Assembly (NCBI GenBank): GCA_016932785.1
Contig: JAFGCJ010000002.1
Coordinates: 209,777 to 273,776, forward strand
Length of the DNA: 64,000 nt
Source: Candidatus Dojkabacteria bacterium
GTDB lineage: Bacteria; Patescibacteriota; Dojkabacteria; SC72; JAFGCJ01
Reading direction: 5' to 3'
Position 1 is the first letter of the stretch, and every line of letters starts with the position of its first letter. A program made the position numbers and the translations under genes. The notes beneath the pieces were generated by a model. That model saw only the letters and a list, made by a program, of their open reading frames with translations, did not search any database and was not told where the DNA came from. Of this stretch, positions 5,731-53,191 are shown one piece after another.

Positions 5731-6089
5731 AAAAATCTAAATAAGATAATTTATTAGTGCTTATTATAGACGAAATTGGAGGTCAACTCAATCCCATAGT
5801 GTGAGAAAATTTATTAACCACGTATAATCTCCGTCACATCTACACAACACTATTTATTATTCAACCCCAAAAATGTATAATTATATAGGATTTCATTGAT
5901 TTACATATGTCAATGAAGTTTTTCTTTTAATAGACCATTTCATGCATTTAGACAAGTTTTGTCTAGACGCTGAAGGTTCCTTAACAATCAAAGGGCATCC
6001 TTTTTGATTAAGCCGATGGCCGGCAAGATTGCACGAAACTCCGGATAGCTTGGTGCAGTGCTGCTGGTCATCCTTACTCAAACAAGGAG

Positions 6090-6569
6090 GTGATGAAAAA
6101 AAGAAAAGAGAGTGAGGAAGATCAAATACTGATAGGGGGCGGGAAAATGACTAGCTGGAGATTAAAAATAGTAGTTTTCGTTTTTCTCTTATTCGTACCG
6201 ATATTGGCCTGCGCGCCGATACCGGGATTTAGGTCTACGGATATTCCACTGCCAGAGGAGACCCAGACTCCAAAGTCAGAACACATCTGGGTCTGGGTTG
6301 CAAACTCGGACTACTGGATCGAGCTTGAGATTACAAGCTACGATCCGTTCACGGTCAAATCTGTCGACCCACTCGAAGATGATATTGAGATTCAAGAAGT
6401 TACAGGTAACTCCTGGAAAGTGTGTTTAATAGGTGTCAAAGAAACACCTCTATTCACAGCAACAATAAGCGACAACGTACTAATCCTACAGGCGTCAGGT
6501 GAAAACTTAATAGTTTATTACTCTCCCATGGACGATCTAGCAGAAACAGGACAGAGGGATACTTCATGA
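6090..6569 (+). CDS. small secreted protein, probable lipoprotein
   Basis: Signal-peptide-like stretch WRLKIVVFVFLLFVPILAC with a lipobox-like L-A-C. A strong AAGGAGG lies at 6084-6090. The alternative start at 6147 (MTSWRL) is plausible. Confidence 0.55.
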   Translation: MMKKRKESEEDQILIGGGKMTSWRLKIVVFVFLLFVPILACAPIPGFRSTDIPLPEETQTPKSEHIWVWVANSDYWIELEITSYDPFTVKSVDPLEDDIEIQEVTGNSWKVCLIGVKETPLFTATISDNVLILQASGENLIVYYSPMDDLAETGQRDTS

Positions 6570-16834: not shown

Positions 16835-17494
16835 TTATTCTGAATCAGAGTCTTCCAAGCCCTCCGTGCTTGTATCTGTATCCTCAGTTTCTTCTTCATC
16901 ATCCTGAAGATCAACAGTTGGAGCTATATCTGCTCCTTCTGCAGACTCAAATCTTTCCTTCTCATCAAAGTGAAGGAAAATACTATTGATTAAGCTGTTG
17001 GGAAATACCCTAATCTTCTTGTTAAAGTCTGTAACCTCATCGTTATATCTATTTCTTTCAACCGCTATCCTATTCTCAGTACCCTCAAGCTCCACCATAA
17101 GATCTCTTACTGTTTCATCACTCTTCAATTCCGGATAGTTCTCCATTATTACAAGAAGACGCCCAAGTGCAGACTCAACTTCGTTGGCGGCTTCAACTTT
17201 TTCAGCACTCCCCGACTCTGCACCAGAATACTTTGTCCTGGCGTCAGCAATATCACCAAAGACCTTCTGCTCCTGTTCCATATATCCTTTAACAGAAGCA
17301 ACAAGATTCGGGATCAAATCAAATCTACGCTGGTATTGAGTCTCAACTTTGGCCCAGGAGTTATCAACATCCTCTTCCATCTGAACCAAATTGTTACTAA
17401 GTCCTATAACAGCTGCCGCGATGATTATTCCCGCAACGACAAGGACCCCGAAACATCCAGCAATCGCAATAAGTGTTTTCTTCATAGAAGTCAA
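16835..17494 (-). CDS. lemA: LemA family protein
   Basis: N-terminal TM segment, then WAKVETQYQRRFDLIPNLVASVKGY, typical of LemA. Confidence 0.9.
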   Translation of the reverse strand: MTSMKKTLIAIAGCFGVLVVAGIIIAAAVIGLSNNLVQMEEDVDNSWAKVETQYQRRFDLIPNLVASVKGYMEQEQKVFGDIADARTKYSGAESGSAEKVEAANEVESALGRLLVIMENYPELKSDETVRDLMVELEGTENRIAVERNRYNDEVTDFNKKIRVFPNSLINSIFLHFDEKERFESAEGADIAPTVDLQDDEEETEDTDTSTEGLEDSDSE

Positions 17495-17601
17495 CTTTTT
17501 TTAAAAGTTAAAAAGGCTAGAAAATCCAGCCCAAAGAAATCATTTAAAGCCCAGGAGGCTGGAAAACCAACCTCACAGGACTTCTTAATACTAATTTCAG
17601 C

Positions 17602-17967
17602 TTAGCTCTCTGTGCTCTTCTTTGGTGCTGCAGCTGTCCACTCTTTCTTCTTTGTGAAGAAGTAGACCCAGTCAGCCAAAGGAACAAATAGAACCAGGAG
17701 AATCCACATAGTCTTCTTGTCTTCGGGTGCATTTTTTATAACATGCACAAGCATCCAGATTCTGAATGCAAGTAAACCGAGAGAAAGAAGCATTATGCAG
17801 CACCAGACCAACCAAAATGCGCCGAATAATCCAGCCGCAGCTTCATCCGATGAGGATGATGTGGTTGAATATTCATAATCCCACTGTGCAAGTGCAGCAG
17901 TTGCGCTTGATAGAAATAATGTTGCTCCGGCGATTGCTCCGCCTAGCTTTGTAACTACTTTTCTCAT
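17602..17967 (-). CDS. small membrane protein, PLD-nuclease N-terminal (PLDc_N)-like
   Basis: Signal peptide followed by RIWMLVHVIKNAPEDKKTMWILLVLFVPLADWVYFF, which resembles PLDc_N. Confidence 0.5.
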   Translation of the reverse strand: MRKVVTKLGGAIAGATLFLSSATAALAQWDYEYSTTSSSSDEAAAGLFGAFWLVWCCIMLLSLGLLAFRIWMLVHVIKNAPEDKKTMWILLVLFVPLADWVYFFTKKKEWTAAAPKKSTES

Positions 17968-26273: not shown

Positions 26274-28910
26274 ATGACCAACAAAATGACGCCTATGATG
26301 CGTCAGTACAACAATCTTAAACAACAGTACAAGGATAAAATACTTCTTTTTCGCATGGGAGATTTTTATGAGACCTTTGGAGAAGATGCAAAGATTACAG
26401 CCAAGGTCCTTAATATTGCTTTAACAACGAGAGATAAGAATGATGACCCTACTCCTCTTGCCGGATTTCCTCATCATGCAATAGATCAATATCTTCATAA
26501 ATTTGTTCAGGCAGGGTATAAGGTCGCAATAGCGGATCAAGTTGAAGACCCAAGTCAAGCCAAAGGCATCGTCAGACGGGAAGTAATAAGAGTTGTAACG
26601 CCCGGTACGGTAACAGAAGACAAATCACTCGACGAAAATCAGAATAATTTTCTTGCCTCCGTATATTTTTCCAACAAAGTATACGGCATAGCCCTCTGCG
26701 ACCTTTCAACGGGAGAATTTCGGGTTACAGAGACAAAGGATAGATCAAGAATGAGAGATGAGATTGCAAGAATTAATCCCTCGGAGATCCTCATCGCTCC
26801 TCATTCCGATTTTTCAGACCTCTCAGATTATTCCATCCAACCCATTGAAGACTATAGTTTCGACGAAAAAGATGCCAAGGAAATTCTAACCAACCACTAC
26901 AACATAAAAAGTCTTGCCTCATTTGGAATAAATAATTACAAATCTGCTATTGCTGCAGCAGGGGCCATTATCTTTTATCTCGAAGAAACTCAGAAGACAG
27001 AAGTTTCTCACCTTCAGACTATTCAATACTACGACTTAAACGGAAATATGATTTTAGATTCGGCCACCATCAGGAACCTCGACCTTCTATATTCTGAAGG
27101 GGAACATGGAAAAAAGAGTACCTTAATATCCGTTATTGACAGAACGAAAACATCCCACGGCGGAAGGGTTCTTAGACAATGGATTCTACACCCGTTGATA
27201 AACGCAATAGAAATATCTGACCGACTCAATCTAGTTGATACATTATTTCAAAACCCTTCTCTGTTAACTAACGTTCAAGAAATACTTCGAAATATTTCTG
27301 ATCTTGAAAGACTGTGCGGAAAACTCGGCCTTAACAGAGCAAACGGAAGAGACCTAAACGGAATATCTGAATCGATAGAGCACTGTTTTGAGCTTCAAAA
27401 AGCTCTGAAAGACGAACAGACATTTACCTCATTACTAAAAGAATTTACAAAATCCAGACATAGAATAATCGAAATGAAAAAGCTCATCGATAATTCAATT
27501 GTGAAGAACCCTCCTATAACAATAACTGAAGGTAACATAATAAAAGAAGGATATAGTAAAGAAGTAGATGACATAAGAAGCAAATCAGGAGGCAGCAGAA
27601 AATGGATATCAGAACTCGAAAACAAGGAACGAGAGAGAACGGGTATACCATCTCTTAAAGTCAAATCAAACAAAGTCTTCGGCTACTATATTGAGGTCAC
27701 AAATACTCACAAAGATAAAATCCCCGAAGACTATATTCGAAAACAAACTCTTGTGAACTGCGAAAGATATATAACCCCCGAACTAAAAGAAAAAGAAGAA
27801 ATTGTTTTCAACGCCCAGGAAAAACTCGCGGAATTAGAATACGAGTGCTTTCAAGAGATTAGAACCAAAGTTCTTAAAGAGATTGATACTATTCAGAGAA
27901 TTTCCCAAATCATAGCGCAAATTGATGCAATATCATCCTTAGCTGAGTCCGCGAGAGTCAATGACTACAGCAGGCCAGAAATTTTTGATCTTGGCGAAAA
28001 AGATGGCTTAATCGATATCAAGAATGCCAGACATCCAATAGTTGAAAAGACAATCGACGAGGAATTTATAAGCAATGATATTACAATGGATTCAAAGGAG
28101 AATCGTCTACTAATTCTAACCGGTCCAAATATGTCTGGAAAATCCACATACATACGTCAGACTGCGCTCATTCTTCTAATGGCTCAGATAGGAAGTTTTA
28201 TACCGGCAAGTTCAGCACGAATTTCAATTACCGACAGAATTTTCACAAGAGTCGGTGCGTCTGACGATCTCTCTGCTGGAAGAAGCACCTTCCTGGTAGA
28301 AATGGACGAGGCGGCAAATATAATCAACAACGCCACTCATAATAGCTTCATTGTACTAGACGAGATTGGACGAGGAACAAGCACCTATGACGGTGTATCA
28401 ATAGCCTGGGCAATTGCCGAATATATCCACAACAGTGTTAGAGCAAGATGTGTATTTGCTACACACTACCACGAGCTTCTTAAACTCGAATCAGAACTAG
28501 ACGGAGTAAAAAACTACAACATTGCCGTACTAGAAAAAGACGACAATATTACATTCCTAAGGAAAATTGAGAAAGGCGGAACAGATAAGAGTTACGGAAT
28601 TTACGTTGCCAAAATGGCCGGACTTCCAGATTCATTGATCCAGAGAGCCAAAGAAATCCTTAACGGCTTTGAACAAGAAAACATGTTCGGAGTAAGAAGT
28701 GAACCCGTAAGAAAAAGTAAAAAAGAAAAGGTCACTGAACAGCAACCGATTGAAGATGATCACCAAGACCAGCTAAACTTTATGGACAGCTCAAACTCAA
28801 TTCCAAATCTTTTTAGTGATCTGGAAGATATTGATATCAACCACATTACCCCGGTTGAAGCACTTAGACTTCTTGAGAAATGGAAACGGAGACTTACTCG
28901 TCAGTCTTAA
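26274..28910 (+). CDS. mutS: DNA mismatch repair protein MutS
   Basis: N-terminal MMRQY..KQQY..LLFRMGDFYE, Walker A TGPNMSGKST and DEIGRGTSTYDG. Confidence 0.95.
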   Translation: MTNKMTPMMRQYNNLKQQYKDKILLFRMGDFYETFGEDAKITAKVLNIALTTRDKNDDPTPLAGFPHHAIDQYLHKFVQAGYKVAIADQVEDPSQAKGIVRREVIRVVTPGTVTEDKSLDENQNNFLASVYFSNKVYGIALCDLSTGEFRVTETKDRSRMRDEIARINPSEILIAPHSDFSDLSDYSIQPIEDYSFDEKDAKEILTNHYNIKSLASFGINNYKSAIAAAGAIIFYLEETQKTEVSHLQTIQYYDLNGNMILDSATIRNLDLLYSEGEHGKKSTLISVIDRTKTSHGGRVLRQWILHPLINAIEISDRLNLVDTLFQNPSLLTNVQEILRNISDLERLCGKLGLNRANGRDLNGISESIEHCFELQKALKDEQTFTSLLKEFTKSRHRIIEMKKLIDNSIVKNPPITITEGNIIKEGYSKEVDDIRSKSGGSRKWISELENKERERTGIPSLKVKSNKVFGYYIEVTNTHKDKIPEDYIRKQTLVNCERYITPELKEKEEIVFNAQEKLAELEYECFQEIRTKVLKEIDTIQRISQIIAQIDAISSLAESARVNDYSRPEIFDLGEKDGLIDIKNARHPIVEKTIDEEFISNDITMDSKENRLLILTGPNMSGKSTYIRQTALILLMAQIGSFIPASSARISITDRIFTRVGASDDLSAGRSTFLVEMDEAANIINNATHNSFIVLDEIGRGTSTYDGVSIAWAIAEYIHNSVRARCVFATHYHELLKLESELDGVKNYNIAVLEKDDNITFLRKIEKGGTDKSYGIYVAKMAGLPDSLIQRAKEILNGFEQENMFGVRSEPVRKSKKEKVTEQQPIEDDHQDQLNFMDSSNSIPNLFSDLEDIDINHITPVEALRLLEKWKRRLTRQS

Positions 28911-30699
28911 TCTGATCTTTTACATCCTCCAACGCAATAAGACTTTGAGAACCTTTTTTCATATCCTTCAACTGAACTTTGTTCTCCTTCAGCTCATCCG
29001 GTCCCACAACTACTACCCAAGGTATACCGGTCTTATTCGCATATCCAAACTGGCTTTTTAATGAAGTTACATCAGGGTAAAGCATGGCTGAGATATTCTG
29101 TTTCCTAAGATAATCAGCAATCCTCAGAGAGTCCTTCCATAAATTTTTATCAAAAATAGTCACCAAGACTTCAGCCTCGGGTTTACTGAAGTCTTTCATC
29201 TTTCTATCTCGCATTATGTCGCAAATTCTCTCAATACCAAACGAACCCCCTGTTGCAGGAATATCACGCCCGATATATCGGCTGATCGCTTCATCATATC
29301 GTCCACATCCAGCTATTGATCCGACATTTCCATCAATAATTTCGAATTCCCAGACAGGTCCGGTATAAGAAGCCAACCCACGTGCAAGAGATGGATCGAA
29401 TTCATATTTGCTTTCATCTATATCTACGGCCTCAAGATAATCTGCTATCTGGAGAATCTCATTTAGACCTTCATTTCCGATCTTAGAATCTCCTACAGCC
29501 TTTCTCATTTCTTCGATTGTCTCCCTGTAACTCTTGTTCTTGTACCTTTCAATATTTGTTATATCAAGGGTTTCTTCAGCCACATCCCTACTAATTCCAC
29601 GAACCTCTACCATTTCGTCAATAACTTCTTTTGCTCCAATCTTCTGTAACTTATCCAGAGAGACACAAAATCCATAGAATTTGTTCTTATCGACACCAAT
29701 AGAATCAGCCAAGCCTTCAAGAAATTTCCGGTTACTTATTCTCACTTTGTACTCCTTAAATCCTAAACGGTTAACAACGTCGAGCCCCATTTGCATGTGT
29801 TCAGCATCACAGATCATTGACGAACTTCCAACAGTATCCGCATCACACTGAGTAAATTCTCTGTACCGCCCTCGCTGGGTATTTTCGGCCCTCCATGTTC
29901 GCTGTATCTGGTATCTCTTATAAGGAAGCTTGATATCGCCAAGATTTTGGGCCACAGCTCGGCACATAGAGATCATAACTTCAAACTTAAGCATAACATC
30001 ACGGTCACCAGGATCTTTAAACATATAGAACTGCTTTTCCGCCTCTTCACCGCTTTGTCCCAACATCAGATCAGCATATTCGACAGCAGGCGTTTCAAGA
30101 GGTTCATAGCCATACCTTTCAAAGACATCCTCAAAAGTTCCAATTACAAACTTCCGAAGCCTCATATCAGGACCAAAGAAATCTTGAAAGCCCTTAAGTA
30201 ATCTAGGTTTTTTAACTTTTGTCTTGTTATTTTTCTCCATAGCATTTTTTGGCATTAATTCAGCTGTAATCTGAAATGTGTTCTTGCCCTTTTTCTCAAA
30301 TTTTATAATACTAAAAGTCCCATATTCTGCAATTTCCCTTGTATTCTCAACATGTGGACCAATGCAAGCCTGTGTATTCACATCCCCAATAATGGTAAGA
30401 GTTATCTCATTTGCGCTTTCAGGCACAAGCGAGATATCTATTTTCCTTCTTTTGGCTTCCTCCCTATCTATCTTAACAAATTCTACAGGTATATTTCTAG
30501 CGGTAATAGCATTTACCTTATCCTCAATATATTCCTTCGTCATATAGCTAGGCATTTTTTCAACTTTGAAAGGAAATCTCACTTTATCATCAGAAATTTT
30601 CAATCCATATATAGAAATCCTTCCACAGTTCTTTTCAAGAATACCTGAAAGTATATGATCACAGGTATGCAATCTTTTAAAAGTGCTGTCTTTAGACAT
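28894..30699 (-). CDS. hisS: histidine--tRNA ligase with an N-terminal AlaX-like (tRNA_SAD) domain
   Basis: HisRS blocks WRAENTQRGRYREFTQCDAD and GCGRYD, plus a C-terminal anticodon-binding domain. The N-terminal ~165 aa carry HTCDH and CIGPH, the HxxxH and CxxxH zinc motifs of AlaX/editing domains. I chose the ATG at 30699. The GTG at 30813 lies inside predicted RNA helices. Confidence 0.85.
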   Translation of the reverse strand: MSKDSTFKRLHTCDHILSGILEKNCGRISIYGLKISDDKVRFPFKVEKMPSYMTKEYIEDKVNAITARNIPVEFVKIDREEAKRRKIDISLVPESANEITLTIIGDVNTQACIGPHVENTREIAEYGTFSIIKFEKKGKNTFQITAELMPKNAMEKNNKTKVKKPRLLKGFQDFFGPDMRLRKFVIGTFEDVFERYGYEPLETPAVEYADLMLGQSGEEAEKQFYMFKDPGDRDVMLKFEVMISMCRAVAQNLGDIKLPYKRYQIQRTWRAENTQRGRYREFTQCDADTVGSSSMICDAEHMQMGLDVVNRLGFKEYKVRISNRKFLEGLADSIGVDKNKFYGFCVSLDKLQKIGAKEVIDEMVEVRGISRDVAEETLDITNIERYKNKSYRETIEEMRKAVGDSKIGNEGLNEILQIADYLEAVDIDESKYEFDPSLARGLASYTGPVWEFEIIDGNVGSIAGCGRYDEAISRYIGRDIPATGGSFGIERICDIMRDRKMKDFSKPEAEVLVTIFDKNLWKDSLRIADYLRKQNISAMLYPDVTSLKSQFGYANKTGIPWVVVVGPDELKENKVQLKDMKKGSQSLIALEDVKDQIKTDE

Positions 30700-31041
30700 T
30701 TTTGTGTTGTGCTTTAATTTATTTCCGAAATACTCTAAAATCGGGTTAAGCTCGCAGCCGGTACATTCGAGTAGATAAGGAAAAAATACGTAAGTAGTTT
30801 TTCTATTTCTCACTTAAGCGGCTGCGAGCTTCGTTATTGTAGAGGTGGGAACCCCCGAAGGGGCTCCCTTTTTCTTTGTGAGCAAGGCTCCGATTAGGTA
30901 TGATCGCCGATACGGAACATTCTCAACACCTCCCCTCAATATATTTTGGGCTTCTCAAAGTTACAGTGAGAGCCACTTAATGGAAACACGATTTTGCATC
31001 CACTAAGGGACTCTCATCCTCCAAACTTGATCAAAGAGCCA
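30700..31041 (-). ncRNA. candidate structured leader or ncRNA between tRNA-His and hisS (identity unknown)
   Basis: Three helices stand out. One is a 16-position hairpin at 30968-31015. One is a 9-bp helix capped by UUCG at 30847-30868. One is a 13-bp perfect long-range inverted repeat, 30748-30760 with 30819-31831 read as 30819-30831. In the first two, the non-Watson-Crick positions are G-U on the minus strand but A-C on the plus strand. Confidence 0.35.
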
Positions 31042-31118
31042 TGGGGTGGAAGGTGGGAGTTGAACCCACAACAACCTGTACCACAAACAGGCGCTCTGCC
31101 AATTAAGCTACTTCCACC
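31042..31118 (-). tRNA. tRNA-His (anticodon GTG), with encoded G-1, C73 and CCA
   Basis: Manual cloverleaf: G-1 then GTGGAAG/CTTCCAC acceptor, anticodon arm CCTGT-TTGTGGT-ACAGG, T arm GTGGG-TTCAACT-CCCAC, and a C-CCA end. Confidence 0.9.
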
Positions 31119-31355
31119 ACATCGCTGCAGAAAACAGCTGTCTTCAACCAACAGGCCTACGCTCCTGCAACGCGATTCTTCACAATTTCTACTATTTATT
31201 TTTCTTTGCTTGGATAGGTTTTTTAACTGATCCAACATCTGCTCTATAAAGTCAAAATGCTTTTAGCAGCCGATCTAGCTGACCACAATAAATTGCAGTC
31301 GCCTATACAAGCAAAAAGGCCATGTTACTGACCTATGAAATCTTATTAAAATGGG

Positions 31356-31393
31356 AATAAAATCGTCACAGACCAGCAAAATAGCGGTTGTGA
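31356..31393 (-). terminator. terminator-like hairpin with U-tract overlapping the end of a mini-ORF
   Basis: On the minus strand UCACAACCGC pairs with GC(U)GGU(C)UGUGA. That gives 10 bp with two 1-nt bulges and a 6-nt loop, followed by CGAUUUUAUU. Confidence 0.35.
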
Positions 31394-31437
31394 CTGTGAT
31401 GGGCCTTAACTTTCATACTTTCCATTTTTCCTTTCAT
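31366..31437 (-). CDS. 23-codon mini-ORF MKGKMESMKVKAHHSHNRYFAGL (possible leader peptide)
   Basis: It starts about 3 nt after the predicted TSS. An internal ATG is preceded by AGGA. Three His codons lie at 31390-31401. Too short for the ORF track. Very uncertain. Confidence 0.25.
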   Translation of the reverse strand: MKGKMESMKVKAHHSHNRYFAGL

Positions 31438-31446
31438 AACAGCTAT

Positions 31447-31475
31447 ATTATACCATTTTAGGCCATTTTTGTCAA
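31447..31475 (-). promoter_or_regulatory. consensus sigma70-type promoter (TTGACA-17 nt-TATAAT with TGG immediately upstream of -10)
   Basis: The minus strand reads TTGACAaaaatggcctaaaatggTATAAT. It lies 10 nt after the stop of the upstream gene and about 320 nt upstream of tRNA-His. Confidence 0.6.
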
Positions 31476-31484
31476 AAAAGAATG

Positions 31485-49257: not shown

Positions 49258-49689
49258 AATACTATAGGGTTACAAATTGTTACAAAACTGCTCTTTCAGA
49301 CGTTTAATATGCAGTAAAGGCCTCAGCAACAGGCTTTTATTGCCTATTTAACATTTTGTTAAAAGGCGGGGTATATTTGCATTTTTTTATAAAAAGCGCA
49401 GATTACCGTTCTTTAACATCCAAAGAGTTAGCTAGTTAAATCTATCCCCTGACAAAAAACAAATCCTATGGGTAAGCCTAAAAAGCCGCCGACCGCTAGG
49501 TCTGTGATTTTTTAGGCTTGCTCTTGGTTTGTTTCTGACTGTCATAGGTTCCTCCCCAGAAAAACTTATGTCCGGTAATGGACTGTTAATCATAGGAAGG
49601 AGGTGGAAACTGGGGGGTAGAAAGGAAGAATAACACCAGCGGGAACGAAGCAAGAGAAAGTCGAAAATACTCTAGAGAAAGGATATAAG

Positions 49690-51649: not shown

Positions 51650-51727
51650 GGTGGATGTAGCTCAATTGGTTAGAGCGCCTGTTTGTGGCACAGGAGGTTG
51701 AGGGTTCGAGTCCCTTCTTCCACCCCA
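51650..51727 (+). tRNA. tRNA-His (anticodon GTG), second divergent copy, with G-1, C73 and CCA encoded
   Basis: Manual fold: G-1 then GTGGATG/CTTCCAC acceptor (a U6-U67 mismatch), anticodon arm CCTGT-TTGTGGC-ACAGG, T arm GAGGG-TTCGAGT-CCCTT. Confidence 0.8.
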
Positions 51728-53191
51728 GTTTTCATTTTCGATAGCAGATTCCACAGAAACCATATGAGACCAAGGTTCTTTGAAGTTCCAACCAACTTCT
51801 TTATCGTCTAGCGTTAAACCTTCGCTTATAGACATCACTATTTTCCTCTTCTCTTCAAGAGTGCCGTTACTAAAGACTTCCTGTAGACCGAAGCATTGTT
51901 CGTAAAAAAGTTCCAACGACTCACGCACATCGTCTCTGTTGTACTTCACATCACCTCTGAGTTCTTCGAGTTCACTGACTCTCTTGTTTAATATTTCTTT
52001 CTGGTCCAGATACTCATCTTTTGTCAGCTCGCCCTCAATTCTCATACTCAGAATTTTGTCTAGTTTTTGTAGGGTATCAGATAGTTGATTTTCTATCTCC
52101 TCACGCCGATCACATTCCTGTGAAAAATCGACCTCAAGCTGTTTTCTAGTCTTTTCCTTTAGAATCTCCAGATACTTTTTTGAAAGTGAAATCTTAGAAA
52201 TATGCCCAACAAACTGATCTTCCAAATCTTCTGCTCTAATTGGTTTGTTGTCACACTTACCTCTTCGCTTCGTGCAACAGTAATATGTATAGGGCTTGTC
52301 GTTCTTATATTTTGTATATGCAGTTATTGCACAACCACACCTTGGACACTTCATTATTCCTTTGAAAGGATGGTAATGCCTGCTTTGATATGGCTTAGAG
52401 TCGTCGTCCAGGACTTCTTGTAATTCAAGCCACTTCTGTTTTGTAATTAGCGGCTCCCATTTACCTTTATCGCTTTCATCATTTACATCTTCAAAATAGC
52501 CACAGTATGACGGTTTTCGTAGGAGTCTATGTAATTCTGATTTAACGAAATGCTTCCCTCGGCGGGTCTTTACGTCCCATTCATACAACAGATTTACAGC
52601 TTGAACAAGGTTTAATCTATTCGAAATAATCTCATCAACAAGACGGACATAGAACTTAGAGGTTTTGGGATTTGGAGCTATGTTCTTCTTCCCTTTCTCT
52701 GTTCCCATATTTATGTAAAACGCTGGAGCATAAGAGCACCATTCCCCTCGTTTTCTCTTCTCTCTGAGTCCCCTTTTGGTATTAATACTAAGCTCTCTTG
52801 AGTATTGAGCATTTGAACCAAATTCGACTCCTAAAAGGATATCGTTGGCGTTCTCGTTGGTAATGCTTCTATATCGGGTACGAATTTCAAGAAGTTTCCC
52901 GTCAGTTAGCAACTGCATAATAATGCCTGACTCTTGCGGATTGCGGCTTAGACGGTTTGTATGCCAGATTAGAACCCTTTTACAATGCCCCTTCTTGATA
53001 TTCTCGATCAATTCATTGAAACCATCACGTTGTCCTGGCTTTCTAGCAGACTTCGATTCCTTGATGATTCTGGCTATTTTGAGGCTGTTCTCAGCGGCAT
53101 ATTCCTTTAACTCCCTCTCCTGAGCCGGTAAGGACAGTGCCTGCTTCTCTGAACTTTCACTAGATTTTCGACAATAACAAAAATACTCCAT
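51662..53191 (-). CDS. large serine recombinase (integrase-type)
   Basis: N-terminal resolvase block YCRKSSESSEKQALSLPAQ and VLIWHTNRLSRN. There is also a recombinase domain, a zinc ribbon CPRCG...CCTKRRGKC and a coiled coil. The last ~22 codons are antisense to tRNA-His. Confidence 0.9.
   Translation of the reverse strand: MEYFCYCRKSSESSEKQALSLPAQERELKEYAAENSLKIARIIKESKSARKPGQRDGFNELIENIKKGHCKRVLIWHTNRLSRNPQESGIIMQLLTDGKLLEIRTRYRSITNENANDILLGVEFGSNAQYSRELSINTKRGLREKRKRGEWCSYAPAFYINMGTEKGKKNIAPNPKTSKFYVRLVDEIISNRLNLVQAVNLLYEWDVKTRRGKHFVKSELHRLLRKPSYCGYFEDVNDESDKGKWEPLITKQKWLELQEVLDDDSKPYQSRHYHPFKGIMKCPRCGCAITAYTKYKNDKPYTYYCCTKRRGKCDNKPIRAEDLEDQFVGHISKISLSKKYLEILKEKTRKQLEVDFSQECDRREEIENQLSDTLQKLDKILSMRIEGELTKDEYLDQKEILNKRVSELEELRGDVKYNRDDVRESLELFYEQCFGLQEVFSNGTLEEKRKIVMSISEGLTLDDKEVGWNFKEPWSHMVSVESAIENENWGGRRDSNPQPPVPQTGALTN

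Follow-up and report, generated by a model that had tools for sequence, protein, structure and literature searches.

In the Escherichia coli metY-nusA-infB operon, RNase III hairpins behind a tRNA serve both to free it and to set off decay of the message downstream, and the tRNA is followed by an internal promoter (PMC6511841, citing Regnier and Grunberg-Manago 1989). For histidine, leader peptides have been described before hisS paralogues and hisZ in bacilli (PMC2965389), and his-operon attenuators occur in several phyla, Firmicutes included (PMC9413887). Bacteria of the candidate phyla radiation (CPR) have very small genomes, gene regulation in them is almost uncharacterised, and in the literature on attenuators and leader peptides we found no report for them. 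Here we describe the 342-nt spacer between the genes for tRNA-His and histidyl-tRNA synthetase (hisS), at positions 30700-31041 on the minus strand of a 64-kb stretch of DNA (the window) from Candidatus Dojkabacteria bacterium (assembly GCA_016932785.1, contig JAFGCJ010000002.1). This spacer is a conserved, clade-specific three-domain RNA of the minus strand that matches no described family. Like metY-nusA-infB, the locus has a tRNA gene ahead of a translation-related protein gene, with hairpins between the tRNA and the first open reading frame (ORF). Unlike in metY-nusA-infB, the tRNA and the synthetase encoded behind it are a cognate pair, the unit appears to stand under a histidine leader-peptide attenuator, and the intervening RNA has three domains that include a Shine-Dalgarno (SD)/anti-SD helix and a mini-ORF. 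Cleavage is known for the E. coli operon, whereas the present comparison is read from sequence. From the tRNA to hisS, the predicted features are as follows.

31042..31118, minus strand: tRNA-His(GUG), with encoded G-1 (31118), C73 and CCA; body 31042-31117
30951..31041, minus strand: H1, a long irregular hairpin that begins right at the CCA end; core of ~20 bp, 31016-30967
30841..30934, minus strand: D2, a domain closed by helix P1, GGAGGU (30933-30928) with ACCUCU (30846-30841)
30925-30879, minus strand: hairpin P2 in D2, followed by an A-rich linker and then P3
30894..30920, minus strand: mini-ORF in D2, AUG UUC CGU AUC GGC GAU CAU ACC UAA (MFRIGDHT, stop)
30868-30847, minus strand: hairpin P3 in D2, with a UUCG loop
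30748..30831, minus strand: H3, a 13-bp helix with arms 30831-30819 and 30760-30748, holding 58 nt with an AU-rich hairpin
30744-30725 within 30700..30747, minus strand: small 4-bp hairpin CCGA...UCGG, then an A-rich unpaired run to the hisS AUG
28894..30699, minus strand: hisS, encoding HisRS with an N-terminal AlaX-S-like domain; start ATG 30699

The limits of the spacer depend on where hisS begins. The product of 28894-30699 is 100% identical to the NCBI entry 'histidine--tRNA ligase [Candidatus Dojkabacteria bacterium]' (601 aa), and this annotated product and the N-termini of four homologues with the same domain start about 10 residues ahead of the HTCDH motif, so that ATG 30699 is the start codon. 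The GTG at 30813, which the ORF track available to an earlier reading of the sequence alone (the sequence-only reading) had used as the hisS start, is ruled out by the same evidence; this codon does sit within the loop of the 13-bp H3 pairing, as that reading had noted. Since hisS starts at ATG 30699, positions 30700-31041 are non-coding, and with tRNA-His and the 366 nt upstream of the tRNA they make up the longest ORF-free stretch of the window (30700-31484).

To judge strand and stability, the region 30690-31041 was folded in both directions and compared with dinucleotide shuffles. The minus strand gave -115.4 kcal/mol (z = -7.1) and the plus strand -106.2 kcal/mol (z = -3.7). The minus-strand structure mirrored on the plus strand gave -103.5 kcal/mol, so that 12 kcal/mol were lost because 10 G-U pairs turn into A-C. 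By module, H1 and D2 were better on the minus strand and H3 was slightly better on the plus strand. The energies, the z scores and the 10 G-U pairs bear out the minus-strand RNA with strand-specific G-U support that the sequence-only reading had proposed, and the helices it had named were recovered: a hairpin at 30968-31015, with arms at 30967-30984 and 30999-31016; a 9-bp helix, GGGAGCCCC/GGGGUUCCC, with a UUCG loop at 30847-30868 on the minus strand; a perfect 13-bp pairing of 30748-30760 with 30819-30831; and a 6-bp closing helix, GAGGUG (30932-30927) with CACCUC (30847-30842). H1 extends from its core of ~20 bp to ~37 bp, H3 consists of its 13 bp plus inner helices, and the closing helix P1 of D2 resembles an SD/anti-SD pair. 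The full transcript folded as independent local domains around a normal tRNA, and a test for pairing between the tRNA flanks gave only a few-pair extension of the acceptor stem. The hisS start region was unpaired in every fold, and no SD sequestrator at hisS appeared in any of them. No comparable structure was found behind the other tRNA genes of the window. On the plus strand, P3 reads like a terminator (30847-30880), with one A-C mismatch in its stem and TTTTTCTTT following it; the A-rich linker of the minus strand may produce this likeness by coincidence.

Relatives were fetched via the HisRS proteins closest in the catalytic core (62 to 66% identity), which added four further loci. Three of these carry the same three modules at the same position: L096, from assembly GCA_034718635.1, with a homologous leader, tRNA-His, a 277-nt spacer, a 179-aa ORF and hisS; L101, from assembly GCA_041890195.1, with a leader, tRNA-His, a 311-nt spacer and hisS; and L100, a partial member whose contig begins inside the spacer, 250 nt before hisS. 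Their spacers fold as strongly as that of the window (z = -7.3 to -7.5), and the order H1, D2, H3 is the same in all members, as far as the partial L100 extends. BLASTN and nhmmer searches with the 342 nt gave no match in the window, in 83 genome loci or in the loci added later, and a single-sequence covariance model of D2 recovered no relative, also with filters off. Only the order of the modules, the helices and short islands of sequence reveal the homology of the spacers.

These islands and helices recur module by module. A long hairpin follows directly after the tRNA CCA in L096 and L101, and a GAUG...CAUC-type base is common. The purine-rich 5' strands of D2 read GGAGGUG, GGAGUG, AAGGAG and AGGUG across the members, and the pyrimidine-rich 3' strands read CACCUCU, CACCU, CUCCUU and CACCCU. 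Just before the D2 3' strand stands the strong GC hairpin P3, which is perfect in all four members with differing sequences; it is capped by UUCG in the window and L101, and its larger loop in L096 also contains UUCG. The P3 hairpins of L096 and L101 have GAGGG...CCCUC in common, with three compensatory pairs distinguishing them. After D2, the members have a short A-rich link (..AAAC..). H3, the only helix anchored by a conserved sequence core, has the arms AAGCUCGCAGCCG/CGGCUGCGAGCUU in the window, AGGCUCGCAGUGG/CCACUGCGAGCUU in L100, UUGACCGCAGCAG/CUGCUGCGGCCGG in L101 and AAACUCACAGCUG/CGGCUGUGGGUGA in L096. These were compared as equal-length arm-only sequences, MAFFT on the natural H3 regions having misaligned one arm. 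When they were aligned on the core CNCAGC/GCUGNG, 94% of the cells were paired and 7 of the 13 pairs were changed on both sides; none of 500 shuffles and no slid register came close. A regular expression that asked for this core within a stem of 10 bp or more, run over ~100 loci and the window, returned the four orthologous sites and only three unrelated places. Conserved sequence islands lie in and around H3 and on the anti-SD strand. The sequence-only reading had made its case depend on conservation or covariation of the helices in relatives, and H3 is conserved with covariation.

The spacer was compared with known RNA families using Rfam 15 (4227 models), at gathering score and at E <= 10, and ARAGORN for tmRNA (transfer-messenger RNA). 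At gathering score, the window contained only tRNAs; at E <= 10, the spacer gave only noise, the best sub-threshold match being PVX_3 with 22.7 bits against a 42-bit cutoff. There was no RNase P, signal recognition particle (SRP), tmRNA, 6S, riboswitch or ribozyme match in the window at E <= 10, and ARAGORN found no tmRNA, in keeping with the sequence-only reading, which had seen no T-box consensus and no RNase P, SRP or tmRNA motifs. For the equivalent regions of L096 and L101, Rfam likewise gave no family. No second copy of the spacer was found in the window, the ~100 fetched loci, or the JGI metagenomes and IMG/VR data scanned, and exact-pattern scans of JGI metagenomes and IMG/VR for a P3 20-mer, an H1 17-mer and the H3 arm pair returned unrelated generic hairpins or a chance match. 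The 20-mer hairpin GGAGCCCCUUCGGGGGUUCC, G-U pair included, recurs exactly in ten unrelated metagenome or viral contigs (L084-L093); judged by flanking sequence alone, it mostly appears to lie there immediately upstream of a gene or past the end of one, and it looks like a generic stable hairpin. No terminator was found on the minus strand of the spacer; its hairpins are not followed by a T-run, which rules them out as terminators. A pseudogene was considered as well, and tblastn with the genes that relatives carry between tRNA-His and hisS found nothing.

Domain D2 contains the mini-ORF listed above, whose AUG lies 6 nt 3' of GGAGGUG and whose His codon, CAU, is at 30902-30900. L101 has GGAGGUG-GCU-AUG, opening MHDPNHFYSG and a stop, and L096 has GGAG-UGAC-AUG, opening MKGIH and a stop. 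In the window, L101 and L096, the distance from the SD-like sequence to the AUG is thus 3 to 6 nt, the intervening bases differ and the AUG is kept, and the mini-ORFs have 5 to 10 codons, one or two of them for His; the equivalent frame of L100 begins with AUC and lacks a canonical start codon. Folding pairs the SD of the mini-ORF with the anti-SD-like strand in P1. The mini-ORF may be translated, in which case D2 would load a ribosome. Because GGAGG almost never precedes long ORFs in this genome and many genes have TATAAT 6 to 10 nt before the ATG, leaderless translation is suggested to be the norm in this Dojkabacteria genome.

When a ribosome footprint was placed on the initiation site or the His codon during folding, P3, H3 and the hisS start were unchanged in three of three complete members, and constrained folding gave no consistent alternative structure. 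Since the modules stay the same under the imposed footprints, the spacer modules behave in these models as static hairpins rather than as a switch. As in erm/cat-type leaders, a short SD-led ORF stands among hairpins, with its SD paired to a pyrimidine strand. In erm/cat, stalling opens a masked SD that serves the resistance gene downstream; here, the masked SD serves the mini-ORF, hisS lacks one, and the constrained folds showed no switch. A 41-codon, TTG-started frame also runs through D2 and the H3 5' arm (30814-30939, minus strand) and ends in TKLAAA before the stop; a tmRNA-like reading of this KLAAA-ending frame was rejected, as it is not conserved in L096, L100 or L101 and ARAGORN was negative, and the frame is probably due to chance.

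Upstream of the tRNA, the same strand carries the following features.

31447..31475, minus strand: sigma-70 promoter, TTGACA, 17 nt, TG-extended TATAAT; 12/12 matches
31366..31437, minus strand: leaderless His leader ORF, MKGKMESMKVKAHHSHNRYFAGL and a stop, 23 codons; ATG 9 nt after the -10 hexamer
31327..31377, minus strand: antiterminator hairpin, 23 bp; 5' arm GCUGGUCUGUGA, 3' arm UCAUAGGUCAGU
31312..31334, minus strand: intrinsic terminator, AGGUCA-GUAACA-UGGCCU, then UUUUU

The order on the transcript is thus promoter, His leader ORF, antiterminator/terminator, tRNA-His, spacer RNA and hisS. The leader ORF contains three His codons at 31401-31390 (CAU CAC AGU CAC). The 5' arm of the antiterminator spans the last leader codons and the UGA stop, and its 3' arm contains the 5' arm of the terminator, so that the two hairpins are mutually exclusive; the antiterminator is the minimum free energy structure when unhindered. 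The attenuator region is homologous at the nucleotide level (nhmmer, BLAST) to L013, L007, L096, L098 and L101. The promoter aligns likewise in L013, L007, L096 and L101, which also have equivalent terminators of different sequence. Homologous leader ORFs are present in L013, L007, L096, L101 and L094 and carry HHHH, HHH or HHHHNH, and alignment with L013 and L007 shows compensatory changes in the antiterminator; across the homologous regions, both hairpins differ in a compensatory way. The design, with TATAAT 7 to 12 nt before the ATG of a short His-rich ORF, followed by an antiterminator, a terminator and a T-run, recurs at about 20 hisS loci of Microgenomates-type CPR genomes. Clustered His codons, a terminator and an antiterminator that overlap at the stop, and a conserved design with compensatory changes are the marks of a leader-peptide attenuator, and they clearly point to the element at 31475-31312, outside the spacer coordinates, as the histidine sensor of the operon. 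With enough His-tRNA, the ribosome would reach the leader stop and cover the antiterminator 5' arm, and the terminator would form; with a ribosome stalled at the three His codons, the 5' arm would be free, the much stronger antiterminator would form, and tRNA-His and hisS would be transcribed together.

The upstream element shares clustered His codons, an exclusive antiterminator/terminator pair and a T-run with attenuators of the hisL/RF00514 type. Unlike these, it is not a sequence member of the family, its leader ORF is leaderless, it has a two-hairpin design, and tRNA-His would be controlled along with hisS. RF00514 (His_leader) gave no match to it, and the relatives gave only weak Trp_leader-like matches. 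The locus thus points to classic ribosome-mediated attenuation in CPR bacteria, acting from leaderless leader ORFs. Although attenuators of this kind are well known, the leaderless ORF, the joint control of the synthetase and its cognate tRNA gene, which is unusual, and the CPR host set this one apart. A second, conserved type of His leader, ..HHTHT[VL]V.. with a GGCGGGG/CCCCGC antiterminator and a terminator, was seen in five loci (L005:417-497, L006:214-315, L008:~150-231, L010:1662-1736, and L011 after the tRNA-His at 1365-1439), where it precedes a DapF/CntK-like (racemase-fold) gene and hisS. It lies downstream of tRNA-His in L008, L010 and L011, and in L010 and L011 that tRNA-His is itself preceded by a first His leader.

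No SD and no recognisable promoter were found in 30700-30747 on the minus strand, and a promoter search of the whole spacer on that strand gave nothing convincing. Because the spacer has no recognisable promoter and an attenuated promoter lies upstream, hisS is most likely transcribed together with the tRNA. To that extent, the layout, with a perfect promoter upstream and none in the spacer, favors the single transcription unit that the sequence-only reading had suggested. Of its further proposal, a cis-regulatory leader, a structured and conserved RNA within an operon has stood and the T-box type has not; a regulatory role of the 342 nt themselves is only plausible.

By analogy with metY-nusA-infB, we tentatively read the spacer RNA as a processing or stability module of the tRNA-His-hisS read-through transcript, and we would put the probability of this reading at roughly 0.4. 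After read-through of the attenuator, tRNA-His, spacer RNA and hisS would be made as one molecule. The tRNA would then be cut out, H1 and H3 would fix the cutting sites, shield the 5' end newly formed on the hisS message, or both, and the long duplexes H1 and H3 together with the UUCG-capped P3 would set the stability of the hisS part, with D2 offering a masked ribosome-binding site with a short His-containing ORF. A duplex of about two helical turns between tRNA and mRNA, as expected of an RNase III-type site, is present in the predicted H1 and H3. In L101, an internal hisS promoter (TTGAAA-17-TGcAATAAT, 6 nt before the hisS ATG) lies directly after H3, just as the internal promoter (P2) of metY-nusA-infB follows its block of tRNA plus hairpins. 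If the reading is right, the locus documents how a tRNA-mRNA cotranscript is resolved in CPR bacteria; in any case, the spacer RNA is a small, concrete target for RNA-end mapping in metatranscriptomes.

Several points weigh against this reading. The family has four members only, one of them truncated, and the helix alignments were registered by hand from each member's own fold, which inflates the pairing percentages by construction. Relatives with the same operon have short spacers (42 nt in L098, 60 nt in L094, 72 nt in L001); therefore, the spacer RNA would be an added layer that is not needed for tRNA release as such. The spacer of L007 is AT-rich and unstructured. Finally, the conserved combination of SD, AUG and His-codon mini-ORF is left unexplained by a pure processing role.

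This last point is taken up by the possible, if rather unlikely, alternative that D2 is a second, ribosome-mediated histidine checkpoint. The mini-ORF would be translated from its own SD in the short time before the anti-SD strand is transcribed, and a ribosome stalled at the His codon would alter what becomes of the hisS message, perhaps shielding it from 5'-to-3' decay once the tRNA has been cut off; stalled ribosomes are known to stabilise erm messages. The SD-like GGAG(G)UG followed by AUG persists in the window, L101 and L096 despite differing bases between the two, every mini-ORF holds at least one His codon, and GGAGG before genes is otherwise almost absent in this genome. A second checkpoint also has precedent, since in the more distant relatives L008, L010, L011, L005 and L006 a full, bona fide second His leader with an antiterminator and a terminator follows tRNA-His or precedes the hisS operon. 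However, the mini-ORFs have only one or two His codons, which stand next to the stop in the window and L096; no terminator follows D2 in the window, L096 or L100; L100 has its equivalent ORF without a canonical start codon; and constrained folding yielded no alternative structure, with the hisS start unpaired throughout. Nor was a second leader-peptide attenuator found inside the spacer, which offers a single His codon and no terminator after it. The broader proposal of a new class of synthetase leader, a second and mechanistically different His checkpoint that works by mini-ORF stalling or by binding of HisRS or tRNA-His to the D2/H3 core, seems to us unlikely. A second sensor, if there is one, would amount to a novel mode of aminoacyl-tRNA synthetase control. 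A protein-binding operator, through which HisRS or some other protein would control its own synthesis by feedback, would suit the position before the synthetase gene and the conserved islands around H3 and on the anti-SD strand, and E. coli ThrRS feeds back on the thrS leader in this way. Nevertheless, an operator is very unlikely, given that no hairpin resembles the tRNA-His anticodon arm or the G-1:C73 acceptor end and that the hisS start is unpaired and about 50 nt from the nearest conserved helix. For a divergent T-box riboswitch sensing uncharged tRNA-His, which the sequence-only reading had suggested, there is the genomic position only, hisS being under T-box control in many Gram-positive bacteria (PMC2965389). 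As with T-boxes (RF00230), a structured RNA precedes an aminoacyl-tRNA synthetase gene and a long 5' hairpin comes first; unlike T-boxes, the spacer lacks the T-box sequence, the specifier loop, with no His codon displayed in an internal loop of Stem I, and the antiterminator bulge. Three genomes gave no covariance-model match (RF00230, at E <= 10 in the window and at E <= 5 in L101 and L096), and UGGG, the T-box bulge for the CCCA end of tRNA-His (C73), is absent from the 342-nt minus-strand sequence. With no terminator/antiterminator or sequestrator acting on hisS and a different His sensor already upstream, the T-box reading is hardly credible.

Other explanations place the function, if any, outside the hisS message. 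A trans-acting small RNA could be made from the 3' trailer of the tRNA-His precursor, as a product of the 3' external transcribed spacer. The RNA would start where the tRNA ends, its fold is modular and very stable, and in L101 the promoter of hisS lies after H3, so that the element belongs to the tRNA transcript there; yet no terminator ends it, hisS in the window has no other promoter, and the element always stands next to hisS or an ORF-hisS pair, all of which makes such a small RNA distinctly unlikely. An antisense RNA on the plus strand would run from a weak promoter in hisS (30632-30659) to the terminator-like hairpin 30847-30871 and its T-run, antisense to the hisS start. The 9/12 promoter-like and the terminator-like plus-strand sites and the slight preference of H3 for that strand would fit, but promoter matches of this quality are about as frequent as chance would give (4 found against 2.6 expected), a G-U pair of the minus-strand stem becomes an A-C mismatch on the plus strand, H1 and D2 are clearly better on the minus strand, and the conserved AUG, SD and UUCG loops of the relatives are read on the hisS strand; we regard an antisense RNA as extremely improbable. 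Finally, the spacer might be functionless filler, left behind a tRNA gene by palindromic or mobile insertions. The short spacers of the closest fusion-type relatives and the likeness of H3 to a pair of 13-bp terminal inverted repeats would fit. As no other copy turned up in the collections scanned and the element has been kept, with compensatory changes, at a single orthologous site, filler is highly improbable. The reading of the spacer as a processing or stability module is thus the one that we prefer.

Several observations on neighboring genes and regions were made along the way. The N-terminal ~164 aa of HisRS (30210-30699, minus strand) form an AlaX-S-type trans-editing domain with HxxxH and CxxxH motifs (Pfam tRNA_SAD), which aligns full-length to the Pyrococcus AlaX-S structures 1v7o/1wnu (E = 4e-7). 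Only four other proteins among the best 120 matches listed have this AlaX-S/HisRS fusion, and the closest core relatives are without it. In these closest relatives, ORFs of 179 to 196 aa with no Pfam match adjoin hisS or the leader (L096:1644-2183, L097:1446-2036, L099:1934-2494 and L101:1857-2405), and the window has no obvious counterpart there; the L096 ORF begins MKKYIVLDMHGVVF and looks HAD-like by eye. In L001, the closest fusion-type relative, a 419-nt non-coding region upstream of tRNA-His (2437-2856) is very strongly structured (z about -8.6), with no His-rich leader ORF and no Rfam match. Elsewhere in the window, unusually stable folds with no Rfam match at gathering score lie at 49441-49560, 17461-17640, 1-120 and 5881-6360, and a 21-nt inverted repeat (49474-49519) is located between a def gene and a DUF11 gene. 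A second tRNA-His(GUG), at 51651-51727 on the plus strand, shares 85% identity with the first and has an extended -10 promoter of its own; a large serine recombinase gene (51662-53191, minus strand; domains Resolvase, Recombinase and Zn_ribbon_recom) ends within this tRNA gene, overlapping its 3' part. The 54-60 kb region after this tRNA has a lower GC content (0.36), and an element may have integrated at the second tRNA-His.

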